Source: SAR202 cluster bacterium
GTDB taxonomy: Bacteria > Chloroflexota > Dehalococcoidia > Lucifugimonadales > UBA3495
NCBI GenBank assembly: GCA_016872385.1
Contig: VGZV01000006.1
Coordinates: forward strand, 768-64,767
Direction: 5' to 3'
Length of the DNA: 64,000 nt
Part shown: positions 1,840 to 39,392 of the stretch, in pieces
How positions within the stretch are numbered: position 1 is the first letter of the stretch
Layout: each line of letters starts with the position of its first letter
Position numbers and translations under genes: made by a program
Notes under the pieces: model-generated
The model's input: the letters and a program-made list of their open reading frames with translations, nothing else
Database searches by the model: none
Told to the model about the DNA's origin: nothing

Positions 1840-3663
1840 CTAGCGGGGCACGTGGTAGGGCACATTCACCAGGATTATCCGGTCTTGCCGCCCCAGGGCG
1901 GAACGCACCAGCATGGCCGTGTGGTTGTGTAAGAGCTGCTGCCACCAGCGGCGGGGCACAAACTCTGGAATTACTACCGTAATATGCTCGCTGGGGTTCT
2001 CGCTGGCCACCTTCTTGATGTAGTCCACCAGCGGGCGCACCACCTCCCGGTACGGTGAAGGCAAGATAGTCAGCGGGATATTGGTTTCCAGACGGTCCCA
2101 ACGCCGTTCCACCACGTGGGCCGTCTCCGTGTCCACCGCCACATGCACCGCTTGCACGTCCCGGCCAATGAGACGGGCATACTCAATGGCCGGCAGTACT
2201 GCCCGATGCACTCCGCCGACTGGAATGATAACCACCCTGCGACGAGTGGGCACCGCGGGCACATGATTTTCCAGTGACAGGGACTCAGCCAGAGCACGGT
2301 AATGGCCATGTATCACAGCCAGCCCCGATAGCAAGATGGGTATGGCCACCACCACCAACCACGCTCCCGTGGTGAACTTGGTGACAGTCAGGACAATCAG
2401 GACGGTTCCAGTGACCAGCGCCCCTACTCCCGTCACCAGGGAACTGTGCCACCAACCATGCCCTCGCTTTTGCCGCCAGTACCGGGTCATCCCAGCCATA
2501 GTCAGGCTAAAACCGATGAACACTCCGATGGCGTACAACGGCAAGAGTTGGTGCACATCGCCCTGGAAGAGGAAAATCAACAGGATGGCAAATCCCGCCA
2601 GGAGTAATATTCCGTTGGAAAACACCAGGCGGTCCCCCAGGTTGGACAAGGGCCGCGGCAAGAAACCGTCATGGGCCAGCCGCGCCGCCAGCGGAGGAAA
2701 GGCCGAAAAGCTGGTATTGGCTGCCACCACCAGGATAAACAAAGTGCTTAACTGGGTAACATAGTAGAACACACTGCTGCCAAAACTTAAGCGAGCCACC
2801 TGAGAGACCAGGGTCTCCCCCTCCACGGGCCGCAACTCGTACACATAAGCCACCGCGCTCAGACCAACAAACATGACGCCCAATACCACTCCCATCACCA
2901 GCAAGGTGATGCGGGCGTTCCGCACTTCCGGAGGACGGAAGATGTTCAAGGTGTTGGAGACAGCTTCAACACCTGTAATGGCCACACACCCGGAAGAAAA
3001 GGCACGCAGCAACAGAAAGGCGCTCAGGGTTGGCGCTCCCACCATTATGGAGGCGGGCAGCGGCTGGGGAGCCAGGCCCTGGAATATGTGACGGTACGCG
3101 GCTACTGCCAGCATGAGCAGGAAGCTGCCCACGAACAGATACACGGGTAGTGCCAGGAACTGGGCGGACTGCCGCACACCCCGCAGATTCAGCACTGTCA
3201 GTACCACCACCAGCAGCACCGCCAGAGGCACCCGAAAATGAATGAAGCTGGGGAACGCGGAAACTACCGCCGCAGACCCTGCGGTGACCGATACCGCTAC
3301 CGTTAACGCATAGTCCAACAGCAAGCTGGCTCCCGCCACGACACCGGGACCTATTCCCAGGTTTTCCTTGGCTACCACGTAAGCCCCGCCGCCACTGGGA
3401 TAGGTACGGATGACATAGTCGTAGCTGAGCATCACCAGCACCAGCAGGATGGCAATGGCTGCTGTGATGAACGGTATGTCCACGTGCCAGGTCTTGCCGC
3501 CCACGTTCAGGCCCAGCAAAATTTCTTCCGATGCGTAGGCGGATGATGAAATGGCGTTGGCCGCCACAATGACAAAGGCCAGCGGCACCCCCAAACGGGC
3601 GCTTCTGGCTTGCCAAGAGGCGAGAGGATTGCCAATGATTATGGAGCGAATGGAGTTAAACAT
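1840..3663 (-). CDS. APC-superfamily permease with C-terminal cytoplasmic domain (amino acid or KimA-like cation transporter)
   Basis: 607-aa ORF, about 12 hydrophobic segments, GGGAYVVAKENLG motif typical of this APC subgroup, ~150-aa soluble C-terminus. Confidence 0.75.
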   Translation of the reverse strand: MFNSIRSIIIGNPLASWQARSARLGVPLAFVIVAANAISSSAYASEEILLGLNVGGKTWHVDIPFITAAIAILLVLVMLSYDYVIRTYPSGGGAYVVAKENLGIGPGVVAGASLLLDYALTVAVSVTAGSAAVVSAFPSFIHFRVPLAVLLVVVLTVLNLRGVRQSAQFLALPVYLFVGSFLLMLAVAAYRHIFQGLAPQPLPASIMVGAPTLSAFLLLRAFSSGCVAITGVEAVSNTLNIFRPPEVRNARITLLVMGVVLGVMFVGLSAVAYVYELRPVEGETLVSQVARLSFGSSVFYYVTQLSTLFILVVAANTSFSAFPPLAARLAHDGFLPRPLSNLGDRLVFSNGILLLAGFAILLIFLFQGDVHQLLPLYAIGVFIGFSLTMAGMTRYWRQKRGHGWWHSSLVTGVGALVTGTVLIVLTVTKFTTGAWLVVVAIPILLSGLAVIHGHYRALAESLSLENHVPAVPTRRRVVIIPVGGVHRAVLPAIEYARLIGRDVQAVHVAVDTETAHVVERRWDRLETNIPLTILPSPYREVVRPLVDYIKKVASENPSEHITVVIPEFVPRRWWQQLLHNHTAMLVRSALGRQDRIILVNVPYHVPR

Positions 3664-3789
3664 GAGTTGACCAGGGAGCAGGACAGGAAAAATCTAGAAC
3701 TCAATCCGGCACTGCAAAACCCCCTTGGCGGTCCTCTTAGGCCAAGGGGGTCTGAAACATTTCACAGGCCAAGTTGGCAGAATAGACCA

Positions 3790-4872
3790 TTATTTCAGGT
3801 TAGGCGCCACCTCTTTGGCAAAGAGCCGGATTGAGTTCATGACACGGTTAACCGTGATTTGTCCGCCAACGTTTGGCTCAATCATTACGCCAGTCAGCCC
3901 CAGGTCGTCGCGCAATTGGGTAAGACGCTCCACCACCATGTCCGGAGTGCCGTAGGCCAGGCGGTCCCGCAGCAACTCTTCATATGTCACTTCAGCCAGG
4001 CGTTCAGCCCGCTCAGCCCGCTCTTCCGAGGCTGTGGTCCCGGCGCTGCTGGCCGACTTGGCAAAGTTTTCTGCCAGACGTCGGTAGGAGCGCATGGTGG
4101 TGGCTTCCGGCTCAGAAAGGGCTTTTTCCTTAGTCTCCGCCACGTAGGCAGGGATGCGCACGTACACGTCGCCATCACCAGGGTGGCCGGCCTCGCGCCA
4201 GGCCTGGCGGTAGCTCTTTATTGTCTGGTCAATCTCAGGCAGGCTGAAACCCCGCAGTCCGGTGACCATGGGCATACCCATGGCGCCAACCTGGGGGAAG
4301 GTCTCTTTGGTAGTAGCCGCCACCCGGATGGGCGGATGGGGCTTCTGGTAGGGCTTGGGCACCACGCTGAGTTCTTTGAAAGTGAAGTACTTGCCCTGAT
4401 GGGAGAAGCGCTCTTGCGTCCAGGCCTTCAGGATCACCTGCAGAGACTCCTGGAAGCGCTCGCGGCTTTCGCCGTAAGGAATGCCATAGCCTTCGTAGGA
4501 GCGGGGGAACCCGCTACGGCCCACACCGAAGTCCAGCCTGCCGTGGCTGACCTGGTCCACGGTGGCCGCTTCCTCGGCCAGACGCACCGGATGGCACAGG
4601 GGCAGCACGCTGACGCCGGTGCCGATGCGGATGCGCTCGGTGCGGGCGGCAATGGCGCCGGCCATTACCAGCGGCACCGACACCACTGAGGGTATGCCTG
4701 CGCCCATGGGGTCGGTGGGGCGACGCGGCCCGGCAAAGTGCCGCTCCGCCAGCCACAAGCCATCCAGCCCCAGCTCTTCAGCCATGTCCACTATTTGAAA
4801 GGCTTCAGTAAAGGCTTCTTCCTGAGTGACCCCAGACCGGTAATCGCACTCCATTACTAGGCCGACGTGCAC
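3790..4872 (-). CDS. LLM-class (luciferase-like) flavin/F420-dependent oxidoreductase
   Basis: 360-aa ORF. The N-terminus GLVMECDY...FQIVDMAEELGLDGLWLAERHF is typical of the luciferase-like monooxygenase family. Confidence 0.8.
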   Translation of the reverse strand: MHVGLVMECDYRSGVTQEEAFTEAFQIVDMAEELGLDGLWLAERHFAGPRRPTDPMGAGIPSVVSVPLVMAGAIAARTERIRIGTGVSVLPLCHPVRLAEEAATVDQVSHGRLDFGVGRSGFPRSYEGYGIPYGESRERFQESLQVILKAWTQERFSHQGKYFTFKELSVVPKPYQKPHPPIRVAATTKETFPQVGAMGMPMVTGLRGFSLPEIDQTIKSYRQAWREAGHPGDGDVYVRIPAYVAETKEKALSEPEATTMRSYRRLAENFAKSASSAGTTASEERAERAERLAEVTYEELLRDRLAYGTPDMVVERLTQLRDDLGLTGVMIEPNVGGQITVNRVMNSIRLFAKEVAPNLK

Positions 4873-10379: not shown

Positions 10380-10903
10380 TATTGGGTCCCGGCAATGTCC
10401 CGGCGCCCAGCCTGCTGGACCAGGCTTTGGCGGGCCGCGTACCTGGGGCGATTACCACCACCAAAGACCAGCTTTTTGCCCTGGCCCGCAAGTCCTCCCT
10501 GTGGACCCTAAGCTTTGGGCTGGCCTGTTGCGCCATCGAGATGATTTCCACCTACATGGCCCACCACGACTTTGACCGCTTTGGAGTGGTCACCTGGCCC
10601 TCGCCGCGCCAGTCCGACGTGATGATTGTGGCAGGCACAGTGGTCAAGAAGATGGCCGACCCCATCCGCCTGCTGTACGAGCAGATGCCGGACCCCAAAT
10701 GGGTCATCGCCATGGGTAGTTGCGCCACCAACGGCGGGCCTTACTACCGTTCCTACTCGGTGGTCATGGGCGTGGACCACATTATTCCCGTGGACGTGTA
10801 CGTGCCCGGCTGCCCGCCCCGGCCCGAAGCCCTGCTGTACGGCATACTGAAGCTCCAGGACAAAATCTCTCAGGACGCCAGGAAGAGTGGCGGACGCCAG
10901 TAA
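10367..10903 (+). CDS. nuoB: NADH-quinone oxidoreductase subunit B
   Basis: N2 cluster ligand motifs [14 protein letters not shown] and PGCPP. Confidence 0.92.
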
Positions 10904-33075: not shown

Positions 33076-35553
33076 ATGACCACCCCTTCCCGGCAGATTG
33101 AACTGCGCTACGACCCCGCCGCCATTGACCGCAAGTGGCAGGAGCGCTGGGCCGCCGATGGCCTCTACCGCGTGCCCGACGACGATCCCCGGCCCAAGTG
33201 GTTTGAGATGACCATGTATCCCTACCCCTCCGGCGACCTGCACATCGGCCACTGGTACGCCATGGCCCCTTCCGACTGCCACGCCCGCTTCCGCCGGATG
33301 CAGGGATACAACGTGCTGCACCCCATCGGCTTTGACGCCTTCGGCCTGCCTGCGGAGAACGCCGCCATCAGCCGGGGCATTCACCCCTACACCTGGACCA
33401 TGAGCAACATCCAGAATATGCGCCGCCAGCTCAAGTCCATCGGCGCAATCTACGACTGGGACCGGGAAATCATCTGCTGCCTGCCGGAGTATTACCGCTG
33501 GAACCAGTGGTTTTTCCTCCAAATGTACAAGGCCGGCCTGGCCTACCGGGCCAAGGCCCCCGTGGTGTGGTGTCCTTCCTGTCAGACGGTGCTGGCCAAC
33601 GAGCAGGTGGTGGACGGCAACTGCGAACGCTGCCACACGGCCATTACCCGCCGCGACCTGGAGCAGTGGTTCTTCCGCATCACCCAGTACGCCGATCAGC
33701 TCCTGGACTTCCAAGGGCTGCTGGAGTGGCCGGAAAAAATCCTGACCATGCAGCAGAACTGGATTGGCCGCAGCGAGGGCGTGGAAATCAGCTTTGACAT
33801 TTCCCACAAGGGGCTGGACCATAAGGAGATTCGCGCCTTCACCACCCGCATTGACACAATCTTTGGCGTCACCTTCATTGTGCTGGCCCCGGAGCACCCC
33901 CTGGTGCCCCGGCTGACCTCCAGGGAGCAGCACGGCGCCGTGGCGGAGTACATTGCCCAGGCCCGCCGCACCTCGGAGATTGAGCGCCAGTCCACTGAGA
34001 AAGAAAAGACCGGCGTATTCCTGGGGACTTACGCGGTGAACCGGCTCAATGGCGAGCAGGTGCCCATCTTCATCGGCGACTACGTGCTGATGAGCTACGG
34101 CACCGGCGCAGTCATGGGCGTGCCCGCCCACGACTCCCGGGACTTTGCCTTTGCCAAGAAGTATGGCCTGCCCATCCGCCAGGTCATCGCCCCGGTATCT
34201 TGGGATGGAAGCGAACTGACTGGGGCCTACTTGGGCGACGGCTTTATGACCGCCTCGGGCCGCTACGACGGCATGACCAACCAGGAAGGCAAGCGGGCCC
34301 TGGCCCAGGACATCGAGGCCAAGGGCTGGGGCAAACGCACCATCACCTACCGCCTGCGGGACTGGCTCATATCCCGCCAGCGGTACTGGGGCACGCCCAT
34401 TCCCATGATTTACTGCCAGGCCTGCGGCATTGTGCCGGTGCCCGAATCTGACCTGCCGGTGCTACTGCCCCCCGATGCCGAGTTCAAGCCCACTGGGGAA
34501 TCTCCCCTGGCGGCGCACCAGGGCTTCGTCAGCGCCACCTGCTCCCAGTGTGGCGCTGCCGCCCGGCGCGAGACCGACACCATGGACACCTTCGTGGACT
34601 CCTCCTGGTACATGCTGCGCTACACCAGCCCCCAGTACCATCAAGGCCCCTTTGACCCGGCCCTGATGCAGAAGTGGATGCCCGTGGACCAATACACCGG
34701 CGGGGCGGAGCACGCGGTGATGCACCTGCTCTACTCACGCTTTTTCACCAAGGCCCTGCGGGACCTGGGCTTGCTGGAGTTCGACGAACCCTTCCTGCGG
34801 CTGTTCAACCAGGGCATCATCCTGGGAGAAGACCACGAGAAGATGAGCAAGAGCCGGGGCAACGTGGTGAACCCGGACCTGGTGGTGGGCCAGCTAGGGG
34901 CCGACGCCACCCGCTGCTTCATGATGTTCATTGGACCCTGGGACCAGGGCGGCCCCTGGAGCGACGTGGGCATCAACGGCGTGGCCCGCTGGTTGAACCG
35001 GGTGTGGGGCGTCATGGAGCACGACCCGGCCCACCTGGAGGGCGGCGCAGGCAACCCCCAGGCCATCCGGGAGACCCAGCGCCTGCTGCACCAGACCATC
35101 CGCAAGTGCTACCAGGACCTGGACCGGTTCAAGTTCAACACCGCCATCGCCAGCCTCATGGAGCTGACCAACCACCTGACCAGGGTGTGGGCCGAGGCCA
35201 GCGTGGACGCCGCTGCCTGGCGGGAGTGCACGGAGAAGTTCCTGCTGATGCTGGCCCCCCTGGCGCCCCACCTGGCCGAGGAGATGTGGGAGAGCACGGG
35301 CCACGCCTACAGCATCCACCAGCAGCGGTTCCCCCAATGGGACGAAGAGCTGGCCGCCGAGGAGACCATCACCCTGGTGGTGCAGGTCAACGGCAAGGTG
35401 CGGGACCGCATCCAGGCCCCCGCGGGCATCAGCTCCGAGCAGGCCCAGGAGCTAGCCCTGGCCAGCCCCAAGGTGCGGAGCTTCATGCAGGGCAAGGCGG
35501 TGCGCCAGGCAGTGTACGTGCCGGGGCGGCTGGTGAACGTGGTGGTGGGGTAG
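33076..35553 (+). CDS. leuS: Leucine--tRNA ligase
   Basis: 825 aa with HIGH motif (LHIGHWY), KMSKS motif and the CP1 editing domain. Confidence 0.95.
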   Translation: MTTPSRQIELRYDPAAIDRKWQERWAADGLYRVPDDDPRPKWFEMTMYPYPSGDLHIGHWYAMAPSDCHARFRRMQGYNVLHPIGFDAFGLPAENAAISRGIHPYTWTMSNIQNMRRQLKSIGAIYDWDREIICCLPEYYRWNQWFFLQMYKAGLAYRAKAPVVWCPSCQTVLANEQVVDGNCERCHTAITRRDLEQWFFRITQYADQLLDFQGLLEWPEKILTMQQNWIGRSEGVEISFDISHKGLDHKEIRAFTTRIDTIFGVTFIVLAPEHPLVPRLTSREQHGAVAEYIAQARRTSEIERQSTEKEKTGVFLGTYAVNRLNGEQVPIFIGDYVLMSYGTGAVMGVPAHDSRDFAFAKKYGLPIRQVIAPVSWDGSELTGAYLGDGFMTASGRYDGMTNQEGKRALAQDIEAKGWGKRTITYRLRDWLISRQRYWGTPIPMIYCQACGIVPVPESDLPVLLPPDAEFKPTGESPLAAHQGFVSATCSQCGAAARRETDTMDTFVDSSWYMLRYTSPQYHQGPFDPALMQKWMPVDQYTGGAEHAVMHLLYSRFFTKALRDLGLLEFDEPFLRLFNQGIILGEDHEKMSKSRGNVVNPDLVVGQLGADATRCFMMFIGPWDQGGPWSDVGINGVARWLNRVWGVMEHDPAHLEGGAGNPQAIRETQRLLHQTIRKCYQDLDRFKFNTAIASLMELTNHLTRVWAEASVDAAAWRECTEKFLLMLAPLAPHLAEEMWESTGHAYSIHQQRFPQWDEELAAEETITLVVQVNGKVRDRIQAPAGISSEQAQELALASPKVRSFMQGKAVRQAVYVPGRLVNVVVG

Positions 35554-35610
35554 GGTGTTGGGGATGCTTTACAGGCAGTTCATTAGTAAATGGAGAACAA
35601 TAATCTTGCT

Positions 35611-36267
35611 TTAAAGGCTCTCAAGCCATTTCACCCAGTCATCAAAGTGTGCGCACTGCTGACGAATTGCCGTTAAGCCGATGCGTTGTGCTACTAGAGG
35701 GCCATGAACCACTTTCTGATATGACGGGCAAGTATGCATGATCCTTTTTGAAGGTGCACTCTCAGGGTTGTCATTTATTTCCTCGGGGGTCGAAAAGCTC
35801 TCCCGTACGCGTGTGAGAGTCTGCCCTGCCGCTGGCATGTTAAGTGCAACGCCAATTGCCTCAGGCTTGCAAAATAGCAGGGCCTCGAACTCGTGGACCA
35901 TCAGATAGGGGCGGAATCGGCGGTCTCCAATTTGGGATTTCCACTGAATTTCAACGTGTTGCGCGCGATGAACTGGACTTCCTGCAAGCCGTGATTCCAT
36001 CCCCGGAAAATCTGAAGGCAAGCCATAGTAGTCAATGAATGTTGTAACTGCAACAACTCCGGAGTCACCTAAAAGCCGTTTTACGTCCCTTTCCACTTTT
36101 TGATAGTCTGTAATCCCACCCTGGAAAACCGCACCTCGTTTCACCCGCTTAGTAGTCGCAATGGTGGGAGTTAGGCTGACTTCTAATGCTAAAAGATGGG
36201 GAGCAAGTACGTCCTTAACAAACCGTTCTTCAGTTTGTCCCTCTACTAGAGCCAGGACACGCTTCAT
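35611..36267 (-). CDS. DUF4276-like protein (predicted Toprim-like nuclease partner of the upstream ATPase)
   Basis: About 218 aa. Motifs LALVEGQTEERFV, IDYYGLPSDFPG, MVHEFEALLF and NPESAPSKRI match my recollection of DUF4276 proteins. The ATG at 36267 overlaps the ATPase stop (TGATG). Low-GC composition. Confidence 0.7.
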   Translation of the reverse strand: MKRVLALVEGQTEERFVKDVLAPHLLALEVSLTPTIATTKRVKRGAVFQGGITDYQKVERDVKRLLGDSGVVAVTTFIDYYGLPSDFPGMESRLAGSPVHRAQHVEIQWKSQIGDRRFRPYLMVHEFEALLFCKPEAIGVALNMPAAGQTLTRVRESFSTPEEINDNPESAPSKRIMHTCPSYQKVVHGPLVAQRIGLTAIRQQCAHFDDWVKWLESL

Positions 36268-37361
36268 CAAGGCCTACCAGTCAGGACGTTTTTCTCCCAC
36301 AATTCACCCAGGCTGTAATCTTCAAGCCATGAGGCCATGTCGGCTTCCCTCAAGTGCTTGAATACGCTTGCGCCATCCTCCCTGTTGACAACCCAGACGT
36401 GCTGTGGTTCCAAATGGTTGATAAGGGTCACTGACTGGGTGGCCACCAGTAGTTGTGTTCGTGTGGATGCGGATTGGAAAAGTCCCGCCAGAATCTGGAT
36501 GGCCGCGGGATGCAGCCCCAATTCAGGCTCATCAATCAAGATAACTGATGGAAGGTCCGGTTGAAGAAGCAGCGTTGCAAGACAGATAAATCTCAGCGTA
36601 CCGTCAGATAGTGCGGATGCGTTGAAGTACGTGTCGCTGCCTATTTCCTCCCACTCCAGCCGAATCTTATCGGGGTTCAGCGCCGTAGGGACGAGTTTAA
36701 ACCCCCGGAAAAATGGCGCTATTTGCCTAACAGTATCCTCGATGTTTCGGTAGTAATCCGTTTTCTTTTCTTGGAGCAAATATAGAAATGCAGCCAGGTT
36801 GGCCGCATCCGGGCGAAGGAAGCGATTGTCTGCAACATCGCACGTTTGTTTGGGCGGGGCAGACGGGCTGGTGTCATGAAAGTGGTATATCCGATAACTG
36901 TCAAGATACTTCTGGATATACCTAGAAATACCCCCCTTCGACGTCGCTAACTGCGCCTCTTTCTGCCCAGACCAATGCTCAGGAAAAAGGTATGGTCGAC
37001 CAGGATAATTTTCGGTATCCCAGAAATTTGATTTCTCGCTTTCGATCAGGAAATCATTATTTTCAGTGGGTATAAGTATGAGTTCGTAGATATTTTGGTT
37101 AAGCCCTTCCGCGAAAGTCACTTTGATGGAAAGTTTCTCGGTGCGCTTCCTGCCAAAATGCAGAATTGCATTTGCGCCGCCAGCCTGCCCTGTGTAGATG
37201 GCCAGCTCTTGTCTATATATCCTGTTGAGCAAATGGAAACAACTGATGAGATTTGACTTGCCGGCGCCATTACCTCCAATGAATACATTCAGAGGCCCAA
37301 ACTCAAGCTCTTGGTCACGGATGGACTTAAAACCCTGAATGTGCATGCTATGCAACGGCAT
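36267..37361 (-). CDS. ABC/SMC-type AAA ATPase (AAA_15/AAA_21-like)
   Basis: 364 aa. Walker A GGNGAGKSN, signature-like LSDGTLRF, Walker B ILIDEPELGLHP, H-loop-like VATQS. GGAG Shine-Dalgarno 11 nt upstream. Low-GC composition. Confidence 0.8.
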   Translation of the reverse strand: MPLHSMHIQGFKSIRDQELEFGPLNVFIGGNGAGKSNLISCFHLLNRIYRQELAIYTGQAGGANAILHFGRKRTEKLSIKVTFAEGLNQNIYELILIPTENNDFLIESEKSNFWDTENYPGRPYLFPEHWSGQKEAQLATSKGGISRYIQKYLDSYRIYHFHDTSPSAPPKQTCDVADNRFLRPDAANLAAFLYLLQEKKTDYYRNIEDTVRQIAPFFRGFKLVPTALNPDKIRLEWEEIGSDTYFNASALSDGTLRFICLATLLLQPDLPSVILIDEPELGLHPAAIQILAGLFQSASTRTQLLVATQSVTLINHLEPQHVWVVNREDGASVFKHLREADMASWLEDYSLGELWEKNVLTGRP

Positions 37362-37491
37362 AGATACTAGCTCCGCTGGAAGTCCTCGTATTGTACAGCA
37401 GGCATCGCTGTCACAGGGCCCTTAACTGACCCATAGAACGCGCAGTTTTGGCCTGGGAGCACTTCCAGGGATAATGAAGGAGCATTCGCTC

Positions 37492-38775
37492 CTACTCCCT
37501 CCTGCTAATGCTCTCCAGCACCTGGAAGTACTCGGGGAAGGTCTTGGAGACGCAGCCGGGGTCGTTGATGGTGATGGGCGCTCCCCCCAGGGCGGCCAGG
37601 GAGAAGCACATGGCCATGCGGTGGTCGTTGTAGGTGTCAATGGCGGCGGGCTTTAACCGGCGCGGCGGAGTAATCTCCAGGTAGTCCTTACCCTCGGTCA
37701 CGGTGGCCCCCAGCTTGCGCAGCTCCGTGGACATAGCTGCCAGCCGGTCCGTCTCCTTGACCCGCCAGTTCCCCACGTTGCGAATCACCGTCTTGCCCTT
37801 GGCGAACAGCGCCGTGGCCGCCACCGTCATAGCGGCGTCGGGGATGTGGTTCAGGTCCAGGTCCACGCCGTGCAGGTCGCCCTGGCGCACCTCAATCCAG
37901 TCTGAGCCCCGCCGCACCTTGGCCCCCATCTGCTCCAGCACATCGGCCAGCCGCACGTCCCCCTGTACGCTGTCGGCGCCCACGCCGTTGACTCGCACCG
38001 GCCCGCCGCTAATGGCTGCCGCCGCCAGGAAGTAGGTGGCGGAGGAGGCATCGCCCTCCACCAGGGCGCGGCCGGGAGAGATGTAACCCTGGCCGCTGGG
38101 CACCCGGAACCATTCCCAGCCCGACTGTTCCACCGGCACGCCAAAGCGTTTCATGGTGTCAATGGTCATGGCGATGTAAGGCTTGGACACCAGGTCGCCC
38201 TCCACCCGAATCAGCAGGTCTTGCCGCCCCAGGGGCGAGGCCAGCAGCAGCGCGGTGAGGTACTGGCTGGACACGTTGCCCCGGATGGAGACCTCGCCGC
38301 CGCTTAAACCCGAAGCGTGAATGCGCAAAGGAAGGCAGCCGTCCTGCCCCAGATACTCAATGCGCGCCCCCAGGGGGATGAGGACGTCCACCAGGTCCCT
38401 GATGGGCCGCTGGTGCATGCGTGGCTCGCCGGACAGGGTGTAAGTGCCCTGGCCCAGGCACAGGGCGGCGCACAGGGGCCGCACGGCGGTGCCGGCGTTG
38501 CCCAGGAACAGGTCCGCCTCCCGCACCTGGAAAGGCCCGCCCTGGCCTTCCACCCGGCAGCGGGTCTTGTCTTCTGAGAGTTCAAGGCGCACGCCCAGTT
38601 TTTCCAGGGCCGCCACCATATGGCGGGTGTCATCGCTGTCCAGCAGATTGTAGACCTCGGTGCTGCCCTGGGCCAGGGCAGACAGCAACAGGATGCGGTT
38701 GGACAGGCTTTTGGAGCCGGGCAGGGAAACCTGGCCCTCCACGCGCGCAATGGGCTGCAACGTCAGCTGTTCCAT
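37492..38775 (-). CDS. aroA: 3-phosphoshikimate 1-carboxyvinyltransferase (EPSP synthase)
   Basis: 427 aa with [21 protein letters not shown] and NDHRMAM motifs. Confidence 0.95.
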
Positions 38776-38857
38776 AAAACATTCCGTGTCCTATATACGA
38801 CATTAATCAGTTAACACGATTATAGGCTGGCCCCCATCGGCGGTCAAAAACCCCGGT

Positions 38858-39006: not shown

Positions 39007-39035
39007 TTGACATCCAAAGGGTGCTGGGCTATATT
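39007..39035 (+). promoter_or_regulatory. Sigma-70-like promoter (TTGACA-17 nt-TATATT) driving the cobalamin riboswitch and cbi operon
   Basis: Near-consensus hexamers at 39007-39012 and 39030-39035, about 60 nt upstream of the riboswitch core. Confidence 0.6.
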
Positions 39036-39094
39036 ACCGTCAGTCAAGGGCTGGACTTGCAGGGCGTTGGCCCGTTGTTAACAATCTAGCGACA

Positions 39095-39275
39095 CCCGCG
39101 GCGCCCAGGGGCTGAATAGGGAAGACGGTGCGAGTCCGTCACGGTTGCGCCACTGTGTGCGGGGAGTTGGCCGAATACAACGCCACTGTCCCCCCCCCAA
39201 TGTTGACGGGGCCAGGATGGGAAGGCATCGGCCCAGCGATGATCCGCAAGTCAGGAGACCTGCCCGGGTTGATGG
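39095..39275 (+). promoter_or_regulatory. Cobalamin (B12) riboswitch
   Basis: Conserved core AATAGGGAAGACGGTGCGAGTCCGTCACGGTTGCGCCACTGT, B12 box GCCACTG...GGGAAGGC and AAGTCAGGAGACCTGCC. Lies upstream of cobalamin biosynthesis genes. Confidence 0.85.
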
Positions 39276-39360
39276 GACCACTCCTCTGCGCCCAACAGAG
39301 TTGGTCTTGTAGCATCCTGGCATAGGCCTCCGGCCCATGACAAGATATCTGCTATGCGCT

Positions 39361-39392
39361 CCCCTGGCCGCAATTGGGCCAGGGGATTTTTA
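39361..39392 (+). terminator. Intrinsic terminator (probable riboswitch expression platform)
   Basis: CCCCTGGCC-7 nt loop-GGCCAGGGG followed by ATTTTTA. Confidence 0.6.

Follow-up and report, generated by a model that had tools for sequence, protein, structure and literature searches.

Among the ABC-ATPase/TOPRIM defence systems, with which a structural paper on PARIS groups 'MADS3-4' and AbiL, the one closest to the locus described here is HEC-01 (Hma-embedded candidate 01), an ATPase of the ABC type with a TOPRIM protein, nested in Hachiman (Hma) loci (Payne et al., 10.1101/2024.01.29.577857). PARIS itself has two genes, encoding an AAA_15/21 ATPase (AriA), which is thought to act as a sensor, and a separate Toprim effector (AriB). 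In the eight-gene methylation-associated defence system (MADS), the DUF4276 protein Mad4 accompanies the ABC ATPase Mad3; deletion of mad3 or mad4 lowers defence, while mad6-8 are mandatory. The OLD family (P2 Old, BpOLD, Gabija GajA) carries ATPase and Toprim fused in one polypeptide, and AbiL (AbiLi/AbiLii) and RloA/RloB join an AAA_15/21 ATPase to a small partner of the Toprim superfamily (RloB). Here we analyzed a 64,000-nucleotide stretch of DNA from a SAR202 cluster bacterium (Chloroflexota, Dehalococcoidia; contig VGZV01000006.1; hereafter the window), in which two minus-strand genes, A and B, lie between leuS and aroA. Judging from profile matches and gene arrangement, this pair belongs to HEC-01, a known candidate anti-phage family, and is not a new kind of system.

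Searches of PADLOC-DB v2 revealed that both genes match the HEC-01 family hidden Markov models (HMMs) over their full length. Gene A matched the HEC-01A model PDLC04175 at 8.3e-142 (470.5 bits; residues 3-364 align with positions 6-362 of a 363-position profile), and gene B matched the HEC-01B model PDLC04188 at 1.3e-79 (265 bits; residues 1-219 align with positions 11-226 of a 230-position profile). Outside HEC-01, gene A scored best with PDC-M07A and mad3 (about 106 bits) and AriA (104 bits, with AriA models ranging over 59-104), followed by AbiLi (89 bits) and by GajA and Old (about 59 bits). For gene B, only HEC-01B models were detected in PADLOC at E <= 0.1, and only DUF4276 in Pfam. Judged from the sequence, the two genes also have the HEC-01 arrangement: they are adjacent, lie on the same strand and overlap by one base, which is common to the TGA stop of gene A (36269-36267) and the ATG of gene B (36267-36265). 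On the minus strand the A-B junction reads ...GGTAGGCCTTGATGAAGCGT..., also given as ...CCTTGATGAAG...; an alternative TTG start of gene B at 36270, one codon upstream of the ATG, would give 219 aa. Both open reading frames (ORFs) are intact, in keeping with the coupled pair first described, and the overlap constitutes a translational coupling. The initial annotation had called the pair a candidate uncharacterised defence module. The PADLOC models bear out "candidate defence", but "uncharacterised" has to be dropped because HEC-01 was published in 2024.

The SAR202 pair has the gene order of HEC-01, with the ABC ATPase gene first and the TOPRIM/DUF4276 gene after it, and for that family an ABC fold and a Toprim similarity to BpOLD (6NK8) have likewise been reported (10.1101/2024.01.29.577857). 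It differs in location, since the SAR202 copy lies outside Hachiman or any other defence locus. The pair also resembles Mad3-Mad4, an AAA_15/21 ABC ATPase with a DUF4276 Toprim protein, but no mad6-8 genes occur within ±10 kb, and the NCBIfam model MAD3 (NF047739) scored gene A below its threshold (89 bits versus a cutoff of 420). PARIS likewise encodes its AAA_15/21 ATPase and its Toprim effector in two separate genes, whereas its AriB is a DUF4435 protein, a family that gene B does not match, and the 364-aa gene A product is much smaller than the ~55-kDa AriA. With the OLD family the pair shares the ABC ATPase and Toprim logic, and OLD proteins gave the best structural matches to gene B, which also has their ExxxE motif, an Asp after strand β3, an acidic residue starting the next helix and an invariant Lys. 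Unlike OLD, the SAR202 genes are separate, gene B has a Tyr in place of the second Asp of the DxD motif, and the similarity is at the level of the fold only. Finally, AbiL and RloA/RloB likewise pair an AAA_15/21 ATPase with a small Toprim-superfamily protein, and RloA/RloB can occupy a position embedded between hsdS and hsdR that some HEC-01 homologues also hold; the partner there belongs to Pfam family RloB (PF13707) rather than DUF4276.

The gene A product was predicted at the outset to be an SMC/ABC-type ATPase that would match AAA_15 and AAA_21. Both Pfam families were indeed matched, AAA_21 over its full length at 1.4e-31 (111 bits), together with AAA_23 and SMC_N; the SMC_N score is at threshold (40.2 versus 40), and a RecF match covers residues 3-47 only. 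All motifs quoted for it initially (GGNGAGKSN, LSDGTLRF, ILIDEPELGLHP and VATQS) are present. They correspond to a Walker A G29-GNGAGKSN-37, a signature L251-SDG, a Walker B/D-loop I274-LIDEPELGLHP, and T308-Q309-S310 at the H-loop position. In an alignment of 36 homologues, the Walker A G29-G-N-G-x-G-K-S-N37, S252-D-G, the Walker B and D-loop D277-E-P-E-L-G-L-H284, and T308-Q-S are invariant. An AlphaFold (AF2) model (pLDDT, the predicted local distance difference test, 81; predicted template modelling score, pTM, 0.83) matched retron type I-A/Septu PtuA ATPases, SMC heads, Rad50 and RecN in Foldseek (E 1e-15 to 1e-12, probability 1.0). Because of these Pfam matches, invariant motifs and fold matches, we conclude that gene A encodes a compact ABC-type (SMC/Rad50-like) ATPase head without a coiled coil. 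In the public record the gene is named 'chromosome segregation protein SMC', an over-annotation, given that only the ABC head domain is present. A retron-like system, suggested by PtuA as the best fold match, was considered and rejected, since no reverse transcriptase is present and the cassette contains no Rfam RNA.

Gene B, identified initially as DUF4276, matched this Pfam family (PF14103) along the entire profile (1-192 of 192) at 3.4e-53, with 181.2 bits against a gathering cutoff of 30.2, and the motifs first noted in it, LALVEGQTEERF, DYYGLP, HEFEALLF and SAPSKRI, were all found. DUF4276 comprises 3,697 clusters at 50% identity, nearly all of them single-domain proteins of about 220 aa. 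The AlphaFold model of gene B (pLDDT 89.9, pTM 0.87) has strands at 2-8, 30-36, 73-79 and ~119-123 with helices between them, a Toprim-type α/β layout. Its four best matches in the PDB all come from class 2 OLD nucleases, in each case the C-terminal region that contains the Toprim domain (6NJW, 6NJX, 6NJV and 6NK8; E 4e-4 to 2e-3, probability >= 0.99), below which all matches were noise. In a Foldseek search of viral structures (BFVD) the model gave no significant match; an RloB-like protein appeared at E 0.07.

Conservation in the wider family agrees with this fold. Among 59 family members that are 37-52% identical to the protein of the window, only ten columns are invariant (E9, G10, E13, G50, G51, D79, E128, E162, K185 and G197), and conservation reaches at least 90% at H125, E126, Y81 and R175. 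The model places E9 immediately after strand 2-8 and D79 at the end of strand 73-79, and the helix after the fourth strand opens with H125-E126-F-E128; G50-G51 come after a low-confidence loop (40-49), in the region where a counterpart of the glycine after Toprim β2 was sought. E9 and E13 form an ExxxE motif like E400/E404 of BpOLD; the EGxxE motif, on which the first Toprim/OLD-like assignment was based, is invariant across the wider family. In BpOLD the site is made up of E400/E404 (ExxxE), D455/D457 (DxD), T506/E508 where the helical domain's first helix begins, and K562 (PMC6755086). Mapped by motif order and predicted secondary structure, the invariant residues of gene B would fit the two-metal site of BpOLD (E400/E404, the glycine after β2, D455, E508 and K562). 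Payne et al. also align HEC-01B to the BpOLD metal site (bioRxiv 10.1101/2024.01.29.577857), and the Menshen study classed DUF4276 and RloB as Toprim members; these two studies reached the same Toprim assignment for DUF4276 independently.

The composition of the pair is foreign to its surroundings. In 300-nt windows, G+C is 0.45-0.52 across 35600-37400, as against 0.62-0.70 in leuS and aroA. The 1,751-bp A-B coding block has a G+C of 0.495 compared with 0.61 for the window as a whole (z = -6.5); sliding 1,751-bp windows across the 64 kb reach their minimum of 0.491 at a start of 35582, which places the block essentially at the minimum, and 34 non-overlapping control windows go no lower than 0.58. 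G+C at third codon positions is 0.55 in gene A and 0.46 in gene B versus 0.89 in leuS and 0.87 in aroA. The low G+C is far beyond chance fluctuation, and the island recognized from hand counts in the initial annotation is thus the lowest in the window. The pair occupies a convergent leuS/aroA intergenic region in the orientation of aroA. Within ±10 kb there are housekeeping genes only, including the cbi cobalamin operon, aroA, leuS, pheA and a gene for a glycosyltransferase-like membrane protein. As stated originally, no integrase or other defence genes occur in that interval, and a search for terminal repeats, direct or inverted, or a target-site duplication around the cassette returned nothing beyond short, chance-level matches. 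The closest tRNA gene lies at a distance of 18 kb.

Comparison with relatives showed that the pair is an insertion. In relative L010, whose LeuS is 77% identical, leuS and aroA converge directly on each other across a short spacer of roughly 40-70 nt (3031-3101), with cbiC following; this junction is an empty site, and hence the pair is an indel, as had been proposed, rather than a feature present with native composition in all relatives. The pair was absent from this site in all of about 40 Dehalococcoidia leuS loci examined, and likewise from 80 metagenome aroA loci. A scan of metagenome AroA sequences for a closer empty site gave a best identity of 71%, with neither leuS nor the A-B pair beside aroA. 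What lies 3' of leuS varies among the Dehalococcoidia relatives: in the closest relative, L007 (LeuS 88% identical), a gene for a 777-aa tetratricopeptide-repeat (TPR) protein lies 3' of leuS (2305-4638), and in L013 cbiC comes directly after leuS (10476-10574). Exact copies of both proteins occur in a 'SAR202 cluster bacterium' metagenome-assembled genome and on contigs of at least six metagenome samples, in every case in the order aroA, A, B, leuS. The closest homologues (76% identical for gene A and 70% for gene B) come from unrelated lineages; the nearest hosts are Brocadia, Geobacter pickeringii, KSB1, Nitrospirota and Geothermincolia, and homologues of 55-76% identity are spread over at least six phyla. 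Given homologues in unrelated lineages, absence at the site in relatives and foreign composition, the A-B cassette was acquired horizontally. The homologue lists of genes A and B share contigs, which argues that the pair travels as a unit.

We examined the contexts of ten further loci whose pairs are 55-76% identical, making a sample of 11 with the SAR202 copy. Seven of the ten are bare two-gene insertions between housekeeping genes, and one more is cut by a contig end. Two (L092 and L177, with the same synteny) lie within a type I restriction-modification (R-M) locus, between its hsdS and hsdR genes, followed by another AAA_15 ATPase and an AEP/DEAD helicase. The stop/start overlap T(G/A)(A/G)TG was present in all seven homologous loci examined for it (8/8 with the SAR202 copy). 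Cassette G+C was 0.46-0.52 in six of seven hosts, with flanks ranging from 0.35 to 0.70, and the upstream and downstream non-coding ends of eight loci had no sequence in common. More distant homologues (34-45% identity) were found in 13 of 72,556 plasmid records, mostly annotated beside an AAA ATPase gene; one of them adjoins vapBC on an 11-kb MOBQ (mobilizable) plasmid.

Individual copies show some variety. In Geobacter pickeringii (CP009788.1; L089 8910-10657), a 65%-identical pair, one of the seven bare insertions, lies inside a cobalamin operon, between a precorrin methylase gene and cbiG; its G+C is 0.515 between flanks of 0.68-0.70, and it is co-oriented with the operon, so that transcription of the cbi genes downstream has to pass through it or start after it. 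Whether the pair is functionally linked to cobalamin biosynthesis was considered because of this copy and of the cbi operon near the SAR202 pair, and the association was dismissed as coincidence, the other nine contexts being unrelated. In L177 (10001-11164), a deletion has joined residues 3-347 of HEC-01A in frame to the final 46 residues (173-218) of HEC-01B, removing the whole Toprim core, while both genes are intact in the syntenic L092. In the Aeromonas media plasmid pMC64A (L175 4117-10166), a 45%-identical DUF4276 gene lies in a cluster flanked by insertion sequences (IS) that encodes a WYL-domain protein, an SNF2-related protein, an AAA ATPase, the DUF4276 protein and a DNA methyltransferase; this cluster may be a multi-gene modification-linked defence locus.

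Taken together, we favour the view, with a probability of about 0.6, that the pair is an HEC-01 defence module in which an ATPase sensor controls a Toprim nuclease that aborts infection. By analogy with PARIS AriA/AriB, OLD and Gabija, the gene A ATPase would sense an infection cue and act as the regulator that holds or licenses the nuclease; upon a phage-derived cue, gene B would cut nucleic acid (DNA or tRNA) by way of a predicted two-metal site of E9/E13, D79, E126/E128 and K185, and this cleavage would halt the infection, probably to the detriment of the cell. The family is linked to defence by the homologous pairs within hsdS-hsdR R-M loci and in the Aeromonas methylase cluster, and the same analogies suggest an anti-phage function for the clade to which the SAR202 copy belongs. 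Whether an ATPase-DUF4276 pairing had ever been tested was a question raised at the beginning, and the answer is that it has, sparsely, in two tests with mixed results. A cold-seep survey reports HEC-01 as one of the most abundant candidate types of defence in certain environments, and a cold-seep representative protected E. coli B from one or more of the phages T4, T5 and T7.

Several points weigh against this interpretation. The one HEC-01 representative that its discoverers tried, in E. coli MG1655 deltaRM against a BASEL subset and classic coliphages, protected from none of these phages (10.1101/2024.01.29.577857), and the cold-seep report states no magnitude for the protection it describes. 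Close homologues lie next to known defence genes, as the defence proposal led one to expect, at the two type I R-M loci, but 8-9 of the 11 in the sample are solitary among housekeeping genes and outside defence islands. A tblastn search of 50,697 phage records detected no homologue. For gene B, the TM-scores to the OLD regions are just 0.39-0.53, and the canonical second Asp of the Toprim DxD is a conserved Tyr (D79-Y-Y81); the corresponding Asp in BpOLD contacts waters only (PMC6755086). The DUF4276 alignment profile found no match among PDB sequences even at E <= 10, so that the relationship to OLD is drawn from fold and motif order only.

The solitary copies bear directly on another explanation, in which the genes are accessories of DNA-modification systems, as are Mad3/Mad4 and genes embedded in R-M or Hachiman loci, and the SAR202 copy is an orphan without autonomous function. 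The membership of Mad3 and Mad4 in a multi-gene system, the L092 and L177 pairs between hsdS and hsdR, the Aeromonas plasmid copy between an SNF2 protein and a methyltransferase and the inactivity of stand-alone HEC-01 in E. coli would all accord with it. We nevertheless consider it unlikely, because the 8-9 of 11 close homologues that are solitary, spread over several phyla, keep their ORFs intact, their catalytic residues unchanged and their coupling conserved, and this points to selection for a unit that works autonomously. Moreover, the MAD3 match is weak in PADLOC as in NCBIfam (106 bits versus 470 for HEC-01A; 89 versus the cutoff of 420), no mad4 model was matched, and the ±10 kb around the SAR202 pair contain no R-M or mad6-8-like genes.

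Alternatively, the pair may be a selfish element, an addiction-type or self-spreading cassette like R-M or toxin-antitoxin complexes for which any effect on phages is secondary, and this too seems improbable to us. Such a cassette would account for a bare ~1.9-kb insertion without recombinase, tRNA or repeats in the housekeeping DNA of many phyla, for the copy within the Geobacter cbi operon, for a cassette G+C of about 46-52% whether host flanks are at 35% or 70%, and for the copy beside vapBC on a mobilizable plasmid; the copy with a deleted nuclease core is what one would expect if gene B were potentially toxic. However, no non-coding ends are conserved between loci, and plasmids seldom carry the family (13 of 72,556 records). 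The stronger version of this idea takes the ~48% G+C, the bare ~1.9-kb unit between or inside housekeeping operons and the presence in at least six phyla to mean that this HEC-01 clade is an autonomous cassette spreading without a recombinase, with the pair itself or addiction driving insertion and retention and anti-phage activity secondary or absent; we hold it to be highly improbable. Least credible of all is a housekeeping pair for DNA repair or chromosome maintenance, as the SMC name in the source record implies or by analogy with RecF (an ABC ATPase) and RecR (Toprim). Gene A does resemble SMC, Rad50 and RecN heads in fold and has weak N-terminal RecF and SMC_N matches, but the 364-aa protein lacks a coiled coil and is similar to the head domain only, with SMC_N at threshold and RecF limited to residues 3-47. 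Absence from the site in related genomes, foreign composition and a patchy cross-phylum distribution also speak against housekeeping, as does the nuclease-type acidic site that gene B keeps.

We also searched the surroundings of the HEC-01 pair for expression signals; the features of the locus are listed in Table 1. On the minus strand of the 130-nt aroA-A spacer, no sigma-70-like promoter was detected in a promoter scan, and the only strong minus-strand site was TTGACC-17-TATAAT (38847-38819), upstream of aroA. Because of this, the pair may be transcribed by read-through from aroA. A GGAG at 37374-37371 in the spacer is 9 nt upstream of the gene A ATG. No terminator-like site was detected in a scan of the 57-nt spacer between gene B and leuS. 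A 13-nt motif, CTGGAAGTnCTC, has three copies in 160 nt: in the last codons of aroA, inverted in the spacer, and in direct orientation just 5' of the gene A Shine-Dalgarno sequence (37522-37534, 37457-37469 and 37376-37388, respectively). Within the aroA-A transcript, pairing is predicted between the inverted copy and the one on the Shine-Dalgarno side (minimum free energy -72.3 kcal/mol, z = -2.06), and this pairing could, with modest support, be a hairpin that occludes the ribosome-binding site or an alternative hairpin; the arrangement is not conserved in other loci. Farther out, the aroA-cbiC intergenic region carries two divergent near-consensus sigma-70-like promoters (11/12 matches), one at 38819-38847 (minus strand) directed at aroA and possibly the A-B pair, the other at 39007-39035 (plus strand) directed at a riboswitch and the cbi operon. 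This cobalamin riboswitch (Rfam RF00174, 101 bits, full length) lies at 39082-39281 on the plus strand, upstream of cbiC (39537, plus strand) and the cbi operon, with a terminator-like hairpin at 39360-39386.

Table 1. Features of the HEC-01 locus between leuS and aroA (positions in the window; residues numbered in the gene B product).
Feature	Position	Strand	Length or basis
Gene A (HEC-01A), ABC-type ATPase	36267..37361	-	364 aa, ORF list
Gene B (HEC-01B), DUF4276 protein, Toprim-like predicted metal-dependent nuclease	35611..36267	-	218 aa from ATG
TGATG stop/start overlap between genes A and B	36265..36269	-	sequence
leuS	33076..35553	+	flank on gene B side
aroA	37492..38775	-	flank on gene A side
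Spacer, gene B stop to convergent leuS stop	35554..35610		57 nt, AT-rich, other edge of inserted block
Spacer, aroA stop to gene A start	37362..37491	-	130 nt
Gene B candidate active-site residues	E9, E13, D79, (H125) E126, E128, E162, K185		conservation

Experimental support for a function of HEC-01 so far comes from two tests, one negative and one positive but thinly described, and the family has neither a mechanism nor a structure. Residual interest attaches to how the cassette, with no recombinase of its own, comes to lie in housekeeping DNA across phyla. To this family the SAR202 locus adds a clean natural example of insertion, with the empty site in a relative, and a short list of family-invariant gene B residues that can be used for mutagenesis. 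It corrects the public annotation 'chromosome segregation protein SMC', and it shows that the HEC-01 clade to which it belongs lives mostly alone in housekeeping DNA, outside defence islands.

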